This document shows, in pieces, positions 2,623-15,093 of a stretch of DNA of 64,000 bases. The DNA comes from Vermamoeba vermiformis (lineage: Eukaryota), in the NCBI GenBank assembly GCA_045837725.1, contig JBEWZL010000064.1:372001-436000 (forward strand), given 5' to 3'. The notes beneath the pieces are model-generated. The model worked only from the letters and a program-made list of their open reading frames with translations. It made no database searches and was not told the origin of the DNA. Made by a program: the position numbers and the translations under genes. The number at the start of each line of letters is the position of its first letter. Positions within the stretch are counted from its first letter, which is position 1.

Positions 2623-4315
2623 TTACATTTTCATGAGCGAGATTGGGAAAGGAGCACGTGACGCAAAAGTATCGAGTATTGCGTCGCTGACTTGTGCGTC
2701 AGTGGATCTGGTCCGCCAATCACCGGGACTATTGCCAGTCAATAATATAACCATATTCTCGAGGTTCTTTAGTGCTGTCAACTTCATCAAATCATCGCTA
2801 GTAATGTCTCGCAATTGACATCGTCGGAACTCGAGTTGAGTTAAATTTGATAAATTTACAATCTGGTCCAATAATTCATTCGCCAGCGTCATGTTGCCTA
2901 AATGCAAATATCGTAATTGCTGCAAATGATTCAGTGAACTGTAATGTTCCGCTTTGATTTGACAGCTCGTCAAGCTGAGTTCGTGAAGCTGTGTCATATT
3001 GAATATGAACTCTAAGACCTTTGAACAGAGCGTGTTGTTTTTGCCTGTGCCGAAATAATCCAGGCTTAATAAATTTGATAATTTTTGATAGTGCTGCAAG
3101 AAAATAAATGCTGATTGATATTCTCCAACTAAAGTCAATTCTCGTAGTCTCGGCATAATAATCTCGACTTGCTGATTGATCGGAATGAAGTCCGTGTCGG
3201 TCATGTGCATTGACAAATAAGGAAATGCTGTCAAAACTTCTCGCGGCATGTCCGTGATTTTTCCGTGGCACAGGCCGAGATTTAAGTGCACCAAATTAGT
3301 CAATTTCGTTAATGGCGTGAACATACTCGCTGAGATCGGGTATAATAACAAATTGTCTAAATGGAGCCGTGTCAATGACTGCAAACATGTCAAAAGTCCA
3401 ACTGCGTGATTGACACTTCGTTCAGTAACTACTGACATGTTTGACAGTGTTATTTTTGACGCTGCAAATGACTTGAGATTGGTCAGTTGTGAGATCCAAG
3501 TTAATTGAGGCAGATCCGTTGCGTTTCGATTAACGATCGATAGCTCTTCCAAAAAAGGCAATTTTGCGATGTAATCTGCACTAGGATCCGGGTCGAATAG
3601 ATGCAAAGACTTGAGTTGTGTTAATTTCGTCAAGAATCTTGGTTTGAGTGACATAGATCTGGCTACATTGATCGATAGTGAGGTTAATTTCGTGGATAAT
3701 GATAATTTTGTGATACTAATAGCTGTCGTTAATACTGTCAAGCCTCTTAATTGCTTCAACGCTGAAATTTTTCTGAGATCTTCTTTGTCCAACGGGAGGT
3801 AATAGCCCAACGCCGTCAAGTGCGTCATTTTTACCAAATAAGGCAATACTTGCTGATTTATGCCTGACCAACCACTGTTCAGCGGAGAAAACTCCGATTC
3901 ATGAAGCATTAAGTGCAAACTTTTGAGCCGAGTTAATTGACCCAAAAAAGTATATCCTTCGAATCCTGACAGCGTGATCTTGAGTGATCGGAGATTAGCA
4001 AGCTTTGCAAATATTTTTGTTGCCAATTTGTCCGATAAAATGCGCGATCCAGAGCTGAAACTGAGCGTGGCGCGTAATGCAGCAGTTTGAAATCTCTTCG
4101 AAGTTTCTTGAATTGAAGCTAACCTCCATGCTACAATAATATATTAATTAGAATCGTTATTATCGGAATTTTTAATGTTAATTAATGATTTGTAATTATA
4201 GAGAAGAATACTTACATGGAAGATATTGCAAAATTAATTGTAATAGCTCTTCAGGAAGATCATTAATTCCTAGTTTAGGCTCTATTCCGTTCTTTAATAT
4301 ATATTGGTTAATCAT
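2623..4315 (-). CDS. F-box / leucine-rich-repeat protein (2 exons)
   Basis: Exon 1 from ATG 4315 encodes INDLPEELLQLILQYLP (F-box), GTAAGT donor; exon 2 runs into the 467-aa ORF with many LxxLxxLxL repeats. Confidence 0.8.
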
Positions 4316-4710
4316 AATGCTAACGTGACCCAAAGGAAAAAGTAAATTGGATCAGAAAAAATTGAATTATTTTCAAGCTCCAAATATTTGATTTAAAGTG
4401 GAAAATGGCACTCACGTGAACATTAAGTACCAGAGAAAATTTTAAAATATTTTTTAAAGCATAAATAGGCGGCGGATCAGAACAAACATTACCTGTTGCA
4501 AATCCATGAGAATTTCAATTCATATATCTATTATCGACTCTTTCTTCGCATCAAGTATTAATACAACGTGGTATTTGATCTCGATCTATAGAACTTATGT
4601 TATTAAATCAAAAAAGAATTATTTTTCGTTTGAACTTTTCAATCTCCTTTATTGAGATACAAATCATTGATTGAAGAAGTTTTATTGATGTTAATATATG
4701 TACAAAGTAC

Positions 4711-5665
4711 TTATATTCTAGCCATCTCATCAGGGTGCATAGTTGCGTTAGCCGGACTGGCTTTTTTTGCTATGAACATAATGATGAACATTACAGCGCG
4801 ATGCAAGAACATCATTAGACACGCAAAGCCACCGACCTCGCCGATCCATTGGTCAGGAGTATAAATATAATACTCGGTTTCGGTCCAGTAGCCTTGTTTA
4901 GCAAAAACAAAGTCTACGTCGATTACGTTTTCTTGAGTCGGCAGATTTACTGGTGCCGCCGAATAAAGCACGCGGAATTCTCGTTCATTTGTGCCATCGA
5001 TCTCAGTCACGTTGTAGAATGTCAGCCAAACCATTGTCACGTGACCGACTTCGGCAATAAAAGTGTTTTGTTCGTCGAGTACAGGCGGGGATCCAGAATC
5101 ATGCACGAACACGGTAGCGCCGAGAATAGGTTCTTTGACACCATCATATGTAGTGTTCATAGATAAAGTCACTGCCAGTTCATCGCCAGCACTCGTTGAG
5201 AGAACAGATCCGTCGCTATTGAAAGTGAAGCAGTTTCTTGGTATTCCTTCTAATGTTACGGATACGGTTGTTATAGTAGAGCTACAACTGTTCATTGCCA
5301 CTCCGTTTTGCTCGTAGATGCATTCTAAAGGAGTAAGAGGGTTGGATTCAGGGCAGAAAGTAACTGCAGGGAAATTAATCGACGGGGTTGGTGTCCAAAA
5401 TGCTTGTGTTGCAGGCTGATGATTGTAGGCGTTATATCCTCGGACTCCTGAATATTTCAGAAAACGATTAATTAGATTGTGGTTTTAGGTTATAAGGTAG
5501 TTCTGGATTTCGTTTCAAAAATGCGTTTTGCCGCCAAAAGAAGGTTAAATTATTATTACCTGCGAATATTACAACAACGAGGAAGAAAAGAACGCCGAGA
5601 GCGATTTCAAATCCTCGTCCAACTCGGATCGCCTTTGGTGATGCACCTGACTCGAACCAAACCAT
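4711..5665 (-). CDS. Small two-TM DEG/ENaC-like ion channel subunit, 280 aa (exons 5665-5560, 5447-4711)
   Basis: TM1 (IALGVLFFLVVVIFAGV), post-TM1 SINFPAVTFCP, RNCFTFN, GATVFVHD..PP, VDFVF...Y..ETEYY.Y, and pre-TM2/TM2 WIGEVGGFACLMMFL; motifs occur in DEG/ENaC order. Confidence 0.7.
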
Positions 5666-5982
5666 TTGTTATGTTGCTTGTGGTCTGAATTTAATAATTG
5701 ACCGATAACGCCTATTACCCGATTTTGTTACCGCGGTAAAGATAGGAAATTAATCGCCTATTTATAGTTATGAATGAAATCTCTTATTGATCTTATTCGT
5801 TTGATTTCATAATATATGCGTATAATAGTATAGGAAATTAGAGCGATCGGCCATACGTGCAATTTAACGTGAGACTATTAATAGGCATCTGAAAAATGGA
5901 TTCACTGACACTTTGACACCGAGTTGCCTTCAACACTAAATACGCGATATTATTGGTTATATTAACAAGTTGATAAGCGCTA

Positions 5983-8109: not shown

Positions 8110-10447
8110 TTAGGACTGCACATTCTCATTTGAGACAAGTCTGAACTTGGCGAACATGAACGGATATCTGTCTTGGTACCAGTTCCTATTAAAGATGCAA
8201 TAGGTTAGAACTAACGATATACCATAATAAGGCAATCTATATTGCGTACCTGAAGCTTGGTCGGATCAGTTTGAGATCTGTCGCGAAGCTAGCGCCCTTG
8301 ATAACGTAGTGCTTGCCTTCAAAGAAGTCCGAAGAGTATCCAGGATAGTGCTGCAAAAATAACTCGTGTCAGATTCAAGAATTGATGTGATTCTATTCGT
8401 TCATTCGAAATCTCTCTTATTGAAATTGTGCTGCCACAATGCACTTACCGGCATCGCCTCGAAGCCCTCTAAAGGTCCAAAAGGTGTGCTGGTCCATTCC
8501 CACGCATCGCCGATCAAGTCATGCACGCCCCACGCACTAGCGCCCTTGGGATGAGTGCCGACTGGAGTTGGGGACCAGCTGTTCCAATCAACATTGCAGT
8601 GCTCGGGTGTGAGTGCTTCATTGCCCCAAGGATATTTCCTGCAGCGCCTTATTATTATCCAGCTCATACATTAAGTGTAAGCTCGTGCGTACCTCTCGGA
8701 ATTGTCATTCGGGCTCGTGTAAGCAGCTCGCTGGTACTGCGCTTCGGTCATCAAAGATCTGCCTTTCCATTTAGCATAGGCTGTAATTAGAATAGGAATT
8801 AATCCATAGATGTGACTAACGAGTGCTAATGTGAATTACCAGTAGCTTCAGCCCAGCTCACAAACACGGGCCAATTAACAACTTGCGCAATTGGAATCTC
8901 TTCAGAGAACAATAGTTTAACCTAGATATTAAGCGGATTAGAGCAAAGTCTAAGAATAAACCGTGGTATTAGAACTTACAGCGTAAGATCCGTCTTCGTG
9001 TTGTCGCCAGAACACGGGATGTTTCATGTTTTCCTTTTCTTTCCAGATCCAGTCCTCAGGTCTCCAGTTCTGTGGGTTGTCATATGCTCCACTCGTAACG
9101 AACTCCAAGAACTCGCCATTGGTTACGTTCAACGAGTCAATAGTGAAGGCTGGAACATCAACCTGAATTAATTAAGTTAGACACCTTTGGATCTAACATT
9201 CCACGAATGGACCGAAAAGTTATTGTACTATTACTAGGATTGCATCTTTTTTTGCTAATTTTAGGTCAGATTTTTCTTTCGAACGGTTCGCGTTCTAGAA
9301 TCGTTGAGAATATGACTTACTTGTGATTTAGAAAATTCGTTATCCCAACCCCACTCAATTTCATCAAAGTTTACGCCAAGAGTGACCTTGCCGGCAGGGA
9401 TGTGGATTTGGTTCTTTTGTACTTGCGAAGGACCAGTGATCGGGGCTGGAATCCAGTTGGGCTTGTGCTTATATTTGCCATCGAGCTGTTGGTACATGTA
9501 CAGCAGCGTCTCTTGATGCATCATCTCGTGCTCCAGGCCTAAGTGATAAACACGGACTTTTTTCCATAAAAGGAAAAATTAGCGTTCCGTTTAGATTATA
9601 ATTTTATTACCAACGATCATATTATTATTATTTATATTCTTAAATTTGTTGCTCGACTTACGATTTGAGGTCCACTTATTTTCCGTCGTGTTTTTTGCCT
9701 GATCAAAGGCTTCTAAAATCTTCTCGTGGCATTGTTGCGCATAGTCCTTAACTTGCTCGTATGAAGGCCAGCCTGAGTTCTCTTTAGGACACTCCGAATG
9801 CGAATGGATTTTCGTTGGATCCATAACATCCGGATCAATTCCGCGCTCGAACATGTTGTCATACTAAAATCGGACTAATTAATAAGATCGCTATCAAGTG
9901 CATAATATCGTTCTATAGAAATCGTATTAATTGAAAAAAAACGGGGATTAATGTGCGGATGCATCCAGACCCAGATAACTTCGAGAAATTGATATTCAGT
10001 ACGCGCACATAGACGCAGCGTATTTCGTAAGGATGATTTGGGCACTCCATTTGAAAATAGCAATTATTTAACGGAGATCTCAGAGCAATTTTTTGAAAGG
10101 ACGCAACGATTAGCGCAAAATAAATTTAATTAAGCTTGATTCAATTTTGTTTGACTATAAAATAGTATAATTTACTATTAACATATTAAAATTAATCCAA
10201 CAAAATTCGTAACACGATATGGATTGGATCTATTACTTACGTCCTCATTGAATGGCTCCTCTTTGCAAACCTTTCTATTGACATGAATATAGTTGAAACC
10301 GGCAATGTGGCCAACATAGAATAAGAAAGGATGTCGCAGCTCGATCGGCTTGACGAGAAGGGCATCTCGGGTAAGAAATCCGTCGAAGAATGTTTCAGAA
10401 CGAGCCCATAACTTTCTAAATTGTGCTTCTAAATGTCGTTTATCCAT
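8110..10447 (-). CDS. egtB: Ergothioneine sulfoxide synthase (DinB-like + FGE-sulfatase-like; Egt1/EgtB family), about 9 coding exons
   Basis: KPIELRHPFLFYVGH, FERGIDPDVMDPTKIHSHSE, iron-binding EHEMMHQETLLYM, WGWDNE, VTNGEFLEFV, YPWGN, GVHDLIGDAWEWT, YPGYSSDFFEGKHYVIKGASFAT, RPSFRNWYQ. Confidence 0.88.
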
Positions 10448-10771
10448 ATTTACTGTCCCGAAGCGTTAGCTTAAAACTCAAGGGATGCAGAAATAGCAAG
10501 AGCTCTTAACTAACCTTTTGTTTTGTTGCTTGAAGACTTCGATTTGGGTAATGTCAAAAGGTATTAGAATTCCGCCTGTTTAATGCCAAGTGGGCGAATT
10601 CTGGCTGATTTTTTGGTTGGGGAAATAGATCGCACGACTTTTCATGTGCTTTTTAACCTTAATTTGGTGAAAAGTCCGTCTCGGCGATTTTGGCAGACTC
10701 CTCCGTCCGAACCTTCCCTCATCATTCTTCCAGAAGTAATCTAGATTACGACCACACCTCTTCAAGTAACA
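10448..10771. promoter_or_regulatory. Candidate bidirectional promoter between egtB and egtD start codons
   Basis: Only 324 nt separate the divergent ATGs; the interval includes a probable minus-strand 5'-UTR intron of egtB (CTAAC...CAG just upstream of ATG 10447). Confidence 0.5.
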
Positions 10772-12397
10772 ATGGCTACAGACGTAATCCGCGCCGCGAT
10801 CCCTTTGCCTAAGTAAGGATCCTTTCCGCCGCTTCAAACTACTATTAGCAAATTTATAAACACCAACAACAATCGCATCATATATTTACCGCGATTATAG
10901 ATTGTCGTTCTGGTTGTCCTTGTTCTTTATAGTTCACCAAATCCGGACTTTCAGAGCGCATGACTAATTTATCATTAATTTAGGGTTTCGCAACACAAAG
11001 TCGACGAAAGATTTAATCTTATTCAATACCAAACCAATCTCGAGTCTTTCTCTTCGAACGTAAAGGATGGATTGGGCGCTAAAAACAAACAACTTAGTCC
11101 TGCTTTCCTCTACGACGAGCGCGGTTCAAATCTCTTCGAAGATATTTGCAAGCTCGACGAATACTATTTAACCCGTTCAGAAGCCGAGATCTTGGAAAGT
11201 AAATCCCCCGCGATCGTGGAACCCTTCGACAAAGAAACTGTAGTTGTCGTAAGTATTAATTATAGCTATCATAGCATCACGATCCTCATATAATATGATA
11301 AATTGAAGGAAAGTCGCGCGTGACCCGTCGTCAGACTTTAAATTTATTACCAAATTTGTAACGCTATTTCCAGCTTTTCTTAAATAATATTCCCTGAAAT
11401 TATGCACTTGTATTATTGATTTGTTGAATTAACGTAATATAATGTTTAGGAACTCGGATCTGGCAGCTCTATTAAGACCAGACTGTTGATCGACGCTTAC
11501 ACTCGCCGTCATAACGGCATGCATTACGTGCCTATTGATATCTCCAGTACGATGCTCAAAGAGAGCTCGCAAGATATGTTAAAGAGCTTTAACAAGCTGA
11601 AAGTAACTGGTATTGCCGCTGAGTATCGCGAGGCTTTGCGCCATCTGGCTGCATCTCGCGAGTTCAGAGACAAGCGAAAATTGGTTTTATGGCTTGGCTC
11701 GAGCATTGGAAACTTTAACAGAGCACAGGCGTTGCAATTTATGACCGAAATCAGAACTTTGTTGAAGCCTGGTGATTGTTTCTTGCTCGGAGTGGATTTG
11801 AAAAAAGACGAAAAGTAAGTGCCTTTACTCCTCGTTATTATCGACATTTTTAGTCATATTTAATCATATTTGAATATTACTACGATAGTTGTAAGCCAAT
11901 TTGACAGCAAAACTAACGCGCATTTCTCAATCTAGCATTCTTGTTCCTGCTTACCACGACTCGAAGGGAGTGACCGAAGATTTCATTAAGAACGTGCTTC
12001 GTCGAATTAACAACGAGTTGGGAGGCGAATTCGATTTGAACCAGTTCACTTACAGCGCCATCTACAACCAGATCGAGGGCGCTATTGAAATGAGATTGGT
12101 TAGCAACGTAGAACAAACTGTAAATATTTCTTCGTTGAATATGGACGTTCAATTTAAGGAAGGAGAAGCCATTTTTGTTGAAAGCAGCTACAAGTAAGCA
12201 AAAATGAATTTCAGATGTAATTTTGATTAAATTACTAACGGTCAAAAAATAGGTATAACCAAGATGATATTGAGACATTGGTTAAAAATTCTGGTTTTAC
12301 CTTAACTCAGCAATGGTTTGATTCAAATAACCGATTCAGCTTGAATCTGCTGACTGTCCCCGACCAAAAGTCCACGAATCCGCTCCAATATTTGTAA
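10772..12397 (+). CDS. egtD: L-histidine N-alpha-trimethyltransferase (EgtD, Methyltransf_33), 5 exons
   Basis: Exon 1 ATG 10772 (MATDVIRAAIPLP, GTAAGG donor) joins in frame to the exon at 10984; motifs FLYDERGSNLFEDICKLDEYYLTRSE, ELGSGS, YVPIDIS, WLGSSIGNF, LLGVDLKKD, AYHDSKGVT, VESSYKY. Confidence 0.92.
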
Positions 12398-12581: not shown

Positions 12582-15093
12582 TTAGTATTTGAGACTATAA
12601 GCTTCAGCTAAGATTTGTACTGGATGTTTTGTTTTAATCTTGTCGCGCGGCAATGAAGGCTCAATGTTCGTCATGCCTTGCTTAATATGATCGACTGCTA
12701 ACGGGCAATCCGAAGCCACGATATGCTCTTGCGACTCGTTCTCTACAAAACGGAAAGAATTTCAGTTTTAATGGAATCGCGCAAGACGAAATTCATCTTG
12801 AGTAGTTAGTTACCTCTCTCTTTAAAATTTCTGACTGCATTTCTAAATACTGGCTTTCCTACTTTCATGGCAACTTCATGGCCCTCCTACAACATTTTCA
12901 GCACCCGGATGCGTTTTTACTTGGAAAATTGGCCTACCTTATCAACACCAAAAGATCCGCCGTGGCCTGAGCATCGTTCGACAGATGAGATTTTCAAGTC
13001 AGGTATCATTTGTAACAGCTCTTGCGACTTAAATCCAACAGCTTGCGCTCGAGAATGGCAACTATGATGCAGCGTAACGGATCCCGTGTGATTCTTAATT
13101 GGCAACAGACCATGCTCTTTAGACAGCTTAACGACATATTCTGAAGCATCGTACGTATTTTTGGCAACTTTTTGAACCAACTAACAAAATATTAGTAATG
13201 GATTTGAGATCCTGATGTGATGGCGTACCGAGTTGTCGGGCATTAACAGAGGCCATTCTTTCTTCAACATTAATGCACATGAGGCTACTGGAGCAACAAT
13301 ATCGTATCCTTCATCGATGTATTTGCTCAATACTGCAGTCACTTTGACCGCTTGTTGCATGGTCTCTTTCACTTTGCCTTGCTCGAACTGCGGCATGCCA
13401 CAACAGCCCGGGTACTTCGCTTTAACTTCGACTCCATTGTGCAATAACACTGCTCGTAGTGCTATCACAAATCATTATTAGTCGAGGGATGAAAAGTCTC
13501 CGTATTGACACGTGTCAAAGTGCAAGTTCACGTGTCAAAATCTGGCTTGTACGTACCGTGACCAATCTCAGGCTTATTATAATTAACTAGACATGTCGTG
13601 TACATCAATACTTTGCGCTTTTGATACGCTTTGCCTTCAGTATTCACGGGCACAGGGGTTGTTTTGACCTTGTTCATGAATGTTTCTCCCTTCGGCACGT
13701 AATTGGGTAATTCCGCCTTAGGATGGACTCCTTGTATTGCAATAATTAATATTAATAAGAGTCTATTATATACTTATATATGTTGCATACCTGCAATGTA
13801 ATGTAATGCTCGTCTAAAAATGGACGGATGTTCTTCGTTTGTTTTCAACATCCAGTTAACTAATTTGGAAAATCTTGAAGCCAATGGACCAACAAGATCA
13901 ACATTAGTATATAGTGCATGCGTGATACCTAGCAAAAAATATTTGTAAGGATTTCTACATTAACCAACAAAAAAATTGTTTCTATTTCCTAATTAGGTAA
14001 TACTTACTTTCGGCCTGGACTTCTAATTTTCTCGAGACATCTTTTTCCACGTGCGTTGAACTCTTATCAACGGTCTGACTAATTCTACTGCCTGAAATTT
14101 CATCAACGCTGTACTTCTCGGGCTTCTTCAATGTCACGCCAGCCACATTGCTATTCATATTCTCGACTGCTCGGTAGCGCAGCATTAAGTGCGGAAAATC
14201 TATGTTCAGCGTGTGCGGCGGTACGTAAGGACATTTGCTCATGAAACACAAGTCACACATGGTGCACTTGTCGACGACTTGCTATATAATAACATTACGT
14301 TAGTAATATTCATACATTTTATCTTGCAACGTTAAAATGAAGCGAAATCATGCGTGATTTGACGGATGCAGATTCTGGATCGAGCGAAAAATTACCTTAA
14401 ATGAAGAGCTAGGCACACTATCAAGTTCTCCAGTCTTACTATTATCGACTAAATCAAATAGGGTTGGAAAAGAGTCGCACAATGAATAGCATAAGCGACA
14501 TCCATGACACACGTCGAAGACACGACGCATTTCCTGTTTAGAAAAGTCATTTAGCATATAGTTCCATAATTATAGTTATTTTACATATTTTGAACGCCAA
14601 ACTTACGAGTTCTAATTTTTCCTGATTGTAAAAATCCGGATCAGACCACGGCAGAGGATACCGGAATGTTCCCTTGTGCGCTTCACCTATAATTAATATT
14701 AGCTAATTATTTTGTAACGCAAATCGCTTCTGACTTACCGTATTTGTTCGCCGCTTCGGATGCGAGATTTGGATCGGTTTGTTGCTTCGTTACTTTACTG
14801 TTGCATGGTGAAAATTGGATAGAAGATGTATTATATGATTTTTTAATAACATTTTGGGCCTTGTGAGATACGGCGGGTTGAGTGACGCGAGATCGCGAGA
14901 TTCTTAATATTGTCTGTTGAACAATTAAATAAATAAATTAGCTACTATGTGGAGGAGGGTAAAAATGGTATTTATAATAATTTTTGGTATTATTGAGTTG
15001 AAAGAAAAATTAATACGCGGGTGCAAAAGATTTCTTTGGATTCACAAATATTCAGCCCTTAAAACATACCCTTCTTGCAATATTATTCAGCAT
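12582..15093 (-). CDS. Bacterial-type Fe-S oxidoreductase (GlpC/HdrD-like: 2x[4Fe-4S] + CCG domains) with predicted mitochondrial presequence, multi-exon
   Basis: EMRRVFDVCHGCRLCYSLCDSFP, CTMCDLCFMSKCPYVPPH, YPGCCGMP, PVASCALMLK, HHSCHSRAQ, ERCSGHGGSFGV, VASDCPLA, HPVQILAEAY; spliced N-terminus MLNNIARR-TILRISRSRVTQ is Arg-rich with no acidic residues. Confidence 0.85.

Follow-up and report, generated by a model that had tools for sequence, protein, structure and literature searches.

The best-understood channels of the DEG/ENaC type are those of animals. In ASIC1, the GAS belt of the pore is propped by the HG loop (PMC7308080). Na+ selectivity in this channel is set by L7', E18' and D21', and mutations of G10' and S12' abolish the activity of ASIC1a (PMC5449180). 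The pore of pufferfish PAC comprises I310, G313, M316 and K320, where K320 is needed for the Cl- current, and the exchange L315D, which places an acid in the PAC pore, abolishes anion selectivity (PMC7904269). The same structure paper regards PAC and ASIC/ENaC as unrelated in sequence and calls their likeness 'convergence' in its title. A BLAST survey from 2023, which covered Amoebozoa, Fungi and Discoba, found non-animal DEG/ENaCs only in heterokonts, an alveolate and Tunicaraptor, and all of these sequences were full-size (PMC10507113). In pathogenic protozoa, no DEG/ENaC was found (PMC3681921).

We analysed a stretch of DNA of 64,000 nucleotides (the window) carrying a gene for a protein of 280 aa that is almost certainly a DEG/ENaC homologue with the DEG/ENaC-PAC fold. 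With the metazoan DEG/ENaC proteins (ASIC1-5, ENaC, FaNaC, degenerins, pickpocket) it shares two transmembrane segments (TM1 and TM2), the palm/beta-ball fold, a predicted trimeric assembly, the motifs FPAVTxC, CxTFN, GxxVxxH..P and GExGG, L7' and four core cysteines. Unlike them, it lacks the helices of finger, thumb and knuckle, the HG re-entrant motif, the GxS belt and E18'/D21', and its TM2 is unbroken in the model. The DEG/ENaCs of Cafeteria roenbergensis, Tunicaraptor unikontum and Symbiodinium KB8 also belong to unicellular hosts, but these proteins are longer, at about 530-700 aa, and still possess the Cys-rich thumb and G-x-S; the Cafeteria and Tunicaraptor sequences retain HG as well (PMC10507113). 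The finger of the Cafeteria protein is short, and its TM2 entry, YT....LGEVGG, can be brought into gapless register with our protein. PAC (TMEM206, ASOR) resembles the protein in its 12-strand core between two transmembrane segments, the lack of a thumb, a similar size and a TM2 crossing at the 3' glycine; it differs by a helix-turn-helix insertion that our model does not have (PMC7904269) and by Ile/Leu at 0' and Lys at 10', where the present family carries Glu and Phe. Since thumb, finger, HG and GxS are all missing, the protein ought not to be classed with the canonical DEG/ENaCs; judged from its sequence, it also lacks a match to the PAC profile and the PAC pore lysine.

The channel gene and its surroundings

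The gene has the following structure (coordinates refer to the window).

5665-4711, minus strand: whole channel gene; two exons, one open frame, 280 aa
5560..5665 (106 nt), minus strand: exon 1; ATG at 5665 with in-frame stops upstream, short cytoplasmic N-terminus without HG motif, most of TM1
5448..5559 (112 nt), minus strand: GT-AG intron (GTAAT...TTCAG), phase 1, within the Gly36 codon; skipped in contigs, relatives continuous
4711..5447 (737 nt), minus strand: exon 2; end of TM1, all-beta ectodomain, TM2, short C-tail, stop

The preliminary description had claimed that the segment 5559-5448 is spliced out. Contigs of the public runs X1, X2 and X3, which come from two studies and whose status as RNA is only guessed, bear this out, as exactly these 112 bases with their GT..AG ends are absent. 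A fourth run (X21, raw RNA) contributed no reads. Moreover, full-length relatives run uninterrupted across the junction (YAG[FV]RG). The contigs contain 27 variant positions, all of them third codon positions, and 26 of the 27 changes are synonymous, compared with 23% expected for random changes. The gene is under purifying selection. A pseudogene or a chance open reading frame is ruled out by the skipped intron, by 58 related proteins at E<=0.001 (at least one of them spurious) and by the synonymous variants, and the gene is thus confirmed to be real, spliced and conserved. In the frame of exon 2, the first GTG and ATG are found at aa 85 and 87, i.e. after FPAVTFC, so that an ORF caller relying on start codons would miss this motif. 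On the same strand, TATAAATA (5759-5766) precedes the start codon by about 100 bases, and AATAAA (4681-4686) follows 25 bases past the stop.

The neighbours of the gene are an LRR gene and small unrelated genes. Just downstream, 2623-4143 (minus strand), together with a short upstream exon near 4190-4280, encodes an LRR protein (PF23598), whose start looks F-box-like by eye. An intron-containing gene for a histidine-specific methyltransferase (PF10017, EgtD-like; three exons matched) lies at 8401-10465 (minus strand) and forms a divergent pair with an intron-containing gene at 10979-12197 (plus strand), which combines an FGE-sulfatase domain with an HExxHQE-type motif that we take to be EgtB-like. 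Judged by sequence, the pair resembles a small gene cluster for ergothioneine biosynthesis in an amoeba. Next to the EgtD-like gene, at 12917-14281 (minus strand), lie exons of an Fe-S oxidoreductase-like gene with a CCG domain (PF02754).

Relatives and predicted fold

Relatives were collected from three sources (10 of 181 candidates, 58 representatives and 22 of 8000 candidates), giving 75 distinct proteins. Alignment A3 contains 59 of them and the exon-2 product of the window, i.e. 60 rows; the other 16 were fragments, odd models and one spurious match. The protein P0064, a bacterial SpaA-repeat protein, was rejected as a spurious relative. Because the family was gathered by likeness to the query, the conservation counts given below describe this set only. 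The relatives with names, annotated as hypothetical proteins, come from 12 chytrid genera, Euglena longa and E. mutabilis, and the majority of the family are proteins from JGI contigs of about 1 kb. In a midpoint-rooted FastTree phylogeny, the chytrid proteins together with one protein without a taxon name form a single clade and the two Euglena proteins a pair (support 1.0 each), and the window protein falls in a large group of proteins without taxon names. There was no Naegleria among the named relatives. Studer et al. in 2011 are said to have reported ENaC-like homologues in Naegleria gruberi.

Searches with a narrow sequence pattern gave relatives for 2 of 91 matches in metagenomes, for none of 53 in prokaryote genomes and for none of 14 in viral contigs. 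Longer relatives (624-2000 aa) were absent from a set of 8000 candidates, which is weak evidence. The own genome (43.3 Mb in 309 contigs) is eukaryotic. Its main actin has its best matches in PDB 4efh, 1nlv and 3chw, and a profilin in 1prq and 1acf; as these entries are Acanthamoeba and Dictyostelium proteins, the host is probably an amoebozoan. In this genome, three different queries found the same single locus; this number is a lower bound, as the search ran exon by exon and paralogues may exist. Scans of this genome for ASC and TMEM206 yielded nothing, and the ASC scan missed even the channel gene. A weak match to the P2X receptor (E 7e-4, below the cut-off) was seen elsewhere in the genome, at G000:C243:201455-201610 (L009).

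Some relatives carry additional features. In the chytrid members (alignment A4), a conserved stretch of about 20 aa is inserted after the first strand, ahead of FPA, and the C-terminus carries a conserved EGF motif; the window protein has neither. P0060, a gene model of Borealophlyctis nickersoniae with 858 aa, joins a channel relative to arrestin domains and may be a fusion of gene models. By its ESM Atlas features, the Spizellomyces (chytrid) member scores 0.91-0.94 with Mucoromycota and ciliate clusters and 0.90 with a TMEM206 cluster (185/256 features); these scores are leads only, and those of the window protein itself are below 0.9. The Mucoromycota and ciliate clusters are possibly further thumb-less branches of the superfamily. 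PF27811 is present in 43% of the members of the ciliate cluster.

Along the protein, the following elements were recognized.

5353..5373, minus strand: FPAVTFC, aa 61-67, DEG/ENaC hallmark after TM1; P62 and C67 invariant (60/60)
5218..5232, minus strand: CFTFN, aa 108-112; C67-to-C108 distance 41 aa
5083..5121, minus strand: GATVFVH..PP, aa 145-157, beta-ball motif; G145 in 58/60, H151 in 55/60
4951..5043, minus strand: two long palm strands with a 5-residue turn, aa 171-201; model strands E136-148 and E154-166, profile alignment to alpha-ENaC
4759..4857, minus strand: TM2, aa 233-265, with E239 (0'), G241-G242, C245 and L246 (7'); one continuous helix in the model
4801..4809, minus strand: F249-L250-H251, at 10'-12' in the probable register, replacing the GxS belt

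All motifs previously attributed to the 280-aa product (FPAVTFC, CFTFN, GATVFVH..PP and WIGEVGG, which begins at aa 236) are present after removal of the intron. The FPAVTxC, CxTFN and GxxGG hallmarks were thus correctly recognized, with the qualification that the Asn following the first Cys in FPAVTxCN is Pro here. The count of about four ectodomain cysteines and the lack of GxS likewise hold: the cysteines are at 67, 78, 90 and 108, with a further one at 245 in TM2, no GxS follows GEVGG, and across the family 4 or 5 ectodomain cysteines were counted in 50/50 rows scored. The hydropathy profile gives hydrophobic windows at about aa 13-43 and 238-265. A pre-TM1 HG motif is absent from the channel protein and from all 47 rows with at least 30 residues ahead of the TM1 Arg. 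From P62 to E239, the aligned rows span 175-240 aa (median 182). The ectodomain of the channel protein carries 22 D+E against 5 K+R, and in 59/60 rows the ectodomain is net acidic. Several of the family's acids are conserved at 60% or more, and D124, E125, E141, D212, D214, E227 and E239 are conserved in palm and pore.

The proposed similarity to DEG/ENaC is supported at the profile level. The protein matches Pfam ASC (PF00858) with 38 bits against a cut-off of 23.6 (E 1.4e-9), and 39 of 48 aligned relatives match it at E<=0.1. Against PDB chains, the family profile found alpha-ENaC (7e-6), ASIC5 and FaNaC in three collinear segments. In this alignment, the hallmark cysteines are 41 aa apart, compared with 172 in alpha-ENaC and 95 in ASIC5, and the gaps between the segments indicate that finger and thumb are missing from the channel protein. 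Spike and somatostatin-receptor rows in this search were treated as chance. A single-sequence search of PDB sequences gave nothing meaningful (3 hits, best E 0.053). A link to PAC was not found with the profiles A2 and A3 or the chytrid profile A4; Pfam TMEM206 (PF15122) had no match in 48 members or in 13 members, and no PAC chain was among the PDB matches listed for the family profile (best 60 of 112).

AlphaFold2 models were obtained for the exon-2 product, in which most of TM1 is missing, and for P0013, a full-length relative with 46% identity to the channel protein (pLDDT 93.0 and 94.3, respectively). The palm beta-sheet ectodomain that had been proposed appears in the model as a beta core made of strands only, with no helix of at least 4 residues. 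At the insertion point of the thumb there is a short turn, and finger, thumb and knuckle are absent. The structural likeness to both DEG/ENaC and PAC was also supported: the model aligns to human ASIC1a with a VIA Z of 17.5 (rmsd 4.4, 221 aligned), to ENaC with 17.0 (rmsd 2.9, 171 aligned) and to PAC with 15.4 (rmsd 6.0, 220 aligned; PAC chains Z 13.9-15.4). The top matches are ASIC, ENaC, FaNaC-type and PAC chains only. A wide structure search put DEG/ENaC or PAC on each of the first 11 ranks (Z 12.9-17.1), followed by a row with Z 9.0. Structural identity is 10-16% to PAC compared with up to 21% to ASIC/ENaC, and a Foldseek search with P0013 placed PAC chains on ranks 1-3. P2X had no row among the 50 structure matches listed, and a viral fold library returned no credible match, only a poor one to a viral P2X (TM 0.15, rmsd 22.9).

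Predicted assembly, pore and gating

The claim of a trimeric channel gained support from modelling. The three-copy model reached an ipSAE of 0.70, compared with 0.00 for the best of three controls; the pass may reflect memory of the solved ASIC/PAC trimers, and the model was built without most of TM1 and is unlike the calibration set. In that set, the mark was attained by 21 of 30 solved homo-pairs and by none of 23 single chains. At least 85% of the contacts agree between runs, with a pLDDT of at least 75. The predicted interface takes in TM2 at 0', 3', 6'-7' and 9'-10'. However, its ectodomain part is no more conserved than the rest (0.419, n=47, vs 0.425, n=138). On the basis of the model, we consider the protein very probably a homotrimer.

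The register of TM2 was taken from gapless alignments to FaNaC (family profile) and to the Cafeteria sequence (supplement of PMC10507113). It puts E239 at 0' and F249-L250-H251 at G10'-x-S12', in agreement with several end points of the ASIC structural alignments (residue 433 or 434). The PAC end points are L309 in 4/8 human rows and I310 in the pufferfish row; the remaining four deviate from this by one or two. E239, G242, C245 and F249 would accordingly match I310, G313, M316 and K320 of pufferfish PAC, and F249 would occupy the place of the PAC selectivity lysine, going by the 3' glycine and by where the structural alignments end. The half of TM2 that lines the pore (W-3', G-1', E0', GG, L7') is the most conserved stretch of the family. 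E0', G2' and G3' are found in 60/60 rows, L7' in 59/60, F10' in 52/60 and H12' in 48/60. GxS occurs in 0/60 rows, with F-L-H as the consensus at that place, 10' is never K or R, and only 8/60 rows have an acidic residue at 17'-22'. Since the HG loop props the GAS belt in ASIC1, the joint absence of HG and GxS is coherent, and it fits the unbroken TM2 of the model.

The protein is probably an ion channel, and we cautiously favour a homotrimeric, weakly selective cation channel of the DEG/ENaC-PAC superfamily with a palm/beta-ball core, possibly gated by protons or Ca2+. The core would contain two disulfides, C67-C108 and C78-C90. Three unbroken TM2 helices are predicted to line the pore and to cross at G242. 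Cations would be drawn in by the acidic ectodomain and by the E239 residues that ring the outer mouth, and L246 and F249 may form a hydrophobic gate. As GxS, HG and E18'/D21' are missing, we infer that the selectivity differs from that of the animal channels; a strong Na+ preference is not expected, and a weakly selective cation channel is most likely. Given that there is no acidic pocket between thumb and finger, gating would most likely occur by protonation of, or Ca2+ release at, acids of palm and pore, for which D124, E125, E141, D212, D214, E227 and E239 are candidates. The site of action may be the cell surface or acidic vacuoles. The parts of this scheme are not equally secure: a preference for cations is about as likely as not, and gating by pH or Ca2+ is put forward tentatively, with the balance somewhat against it.

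Several features point away from the favoured cation channel. The acid at 17'-22' is rare, and H251 (48/60) and R252, which lie close to the inner mouth, could make the pore prefer anions. This would be the case if the protein were a PAC-like, acid-activated anion channel of endosomes, phagosomes or macropinosomes, with H251/R252 and a basic C-tail taking the part of the PAC lysine. Small size and a thumb-less core are common to both, TM2 is continuous in the model, and the Foldseek ranks of the PAC chains, the H12' and the TMEM206 score of the chytrid member fit as well. However, Phe stands in 52/60 rows at the position of K320, and the invariant Glu at 0' replaces the I/L of PAC, where the effect of L315D on anion selectivity (PMC7904269) speaks against such a pore. 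Moreover, the TMEM206 profile matches none of the members searched (48 and 13), and the VIA Z for PAC falls about 2 short of that for ASIC. We consider a PAC-like anion channel improbable.

An ion channel that leaks constitutively, or one that responds to membrane tension, osmotic change or a small ligand on the exposed beta-ball rather than to pH, is unlikely, though less so than the PAC-like channel. The acidic pocket depends on thumb and finger and cannot form here; the residue that follows the wrist proline and probably corresponds to the proton-sensing His of ASIC is Ala in 37/60 rows; and peptides and force also gate members of DEG/ENaC (PMC10507113). On the other hand, PAC is proton-gated though it has no acidic pocket (PMC7904269), several acids are conserved at 60% or more, and no ligand site was identified. 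With G10', S12' and E18' all missing, the protein may also be built differently or not conduct, considering what these residues do in ASIC1 (PMC5449180). It could be a surface receptor or scaffold, trimeric and with a fold derived from a channel, given that it has none of the known selectivity elements and that its pore could be closed by a Phe ring at 10'. This is very improbable, as the pore-lining half of TM2 is the most conserved part across fungi, euglenids and the lineage of the window, as a working pore predicts.

Possible origin and meaning of the minimal channel

Our literature search, with most subscription journals outside its coverage, found no description of this family, and the available portions of PMC7935092, PMC12189264 and PMC6790391 contain nothing relevant to it. 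A relevance of the family to the origin of the ENaC/ASIC/PAC fold is plausible. The family might be a surviving form of the bare ancestor shared by DEG/ENaC and PAC and have existed already in early eukaryotes (Amoebozoa, Fungi, Discoba). On this reading, the line to the Na+-selective channels would later have gained thumb, finger, HG loop and GxS belt, and the line to PAC the helix-turn-helix and the pore lysine. The spread over three distant lineages and the like architecture of PAC favour an old bare core; as a whole, we hold this ancestral reading to be possible but rather doubtful. Secondary reduction or transfer is a possible source of the bare core as well, in view of the patchy occurrence and of the thumb-bearing channels in Cafeteria and Tunicaraptor.

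If the ancestral reading were true, E0'/F10'/H12' would be a third, so far undescribed pore design on this scaffold, possibly with a pH-dependent ion preference. DEG/ENaC motifs on a frame even smaller than that of PAC widen the superfamily, adding a probable amoebozoan, 12 chytrid genera and two Euglena species. Moreover, with its 280 aa the protein is a natural object on which to test how thumb, finger, HG and GxS contribute to gating and selectivity.
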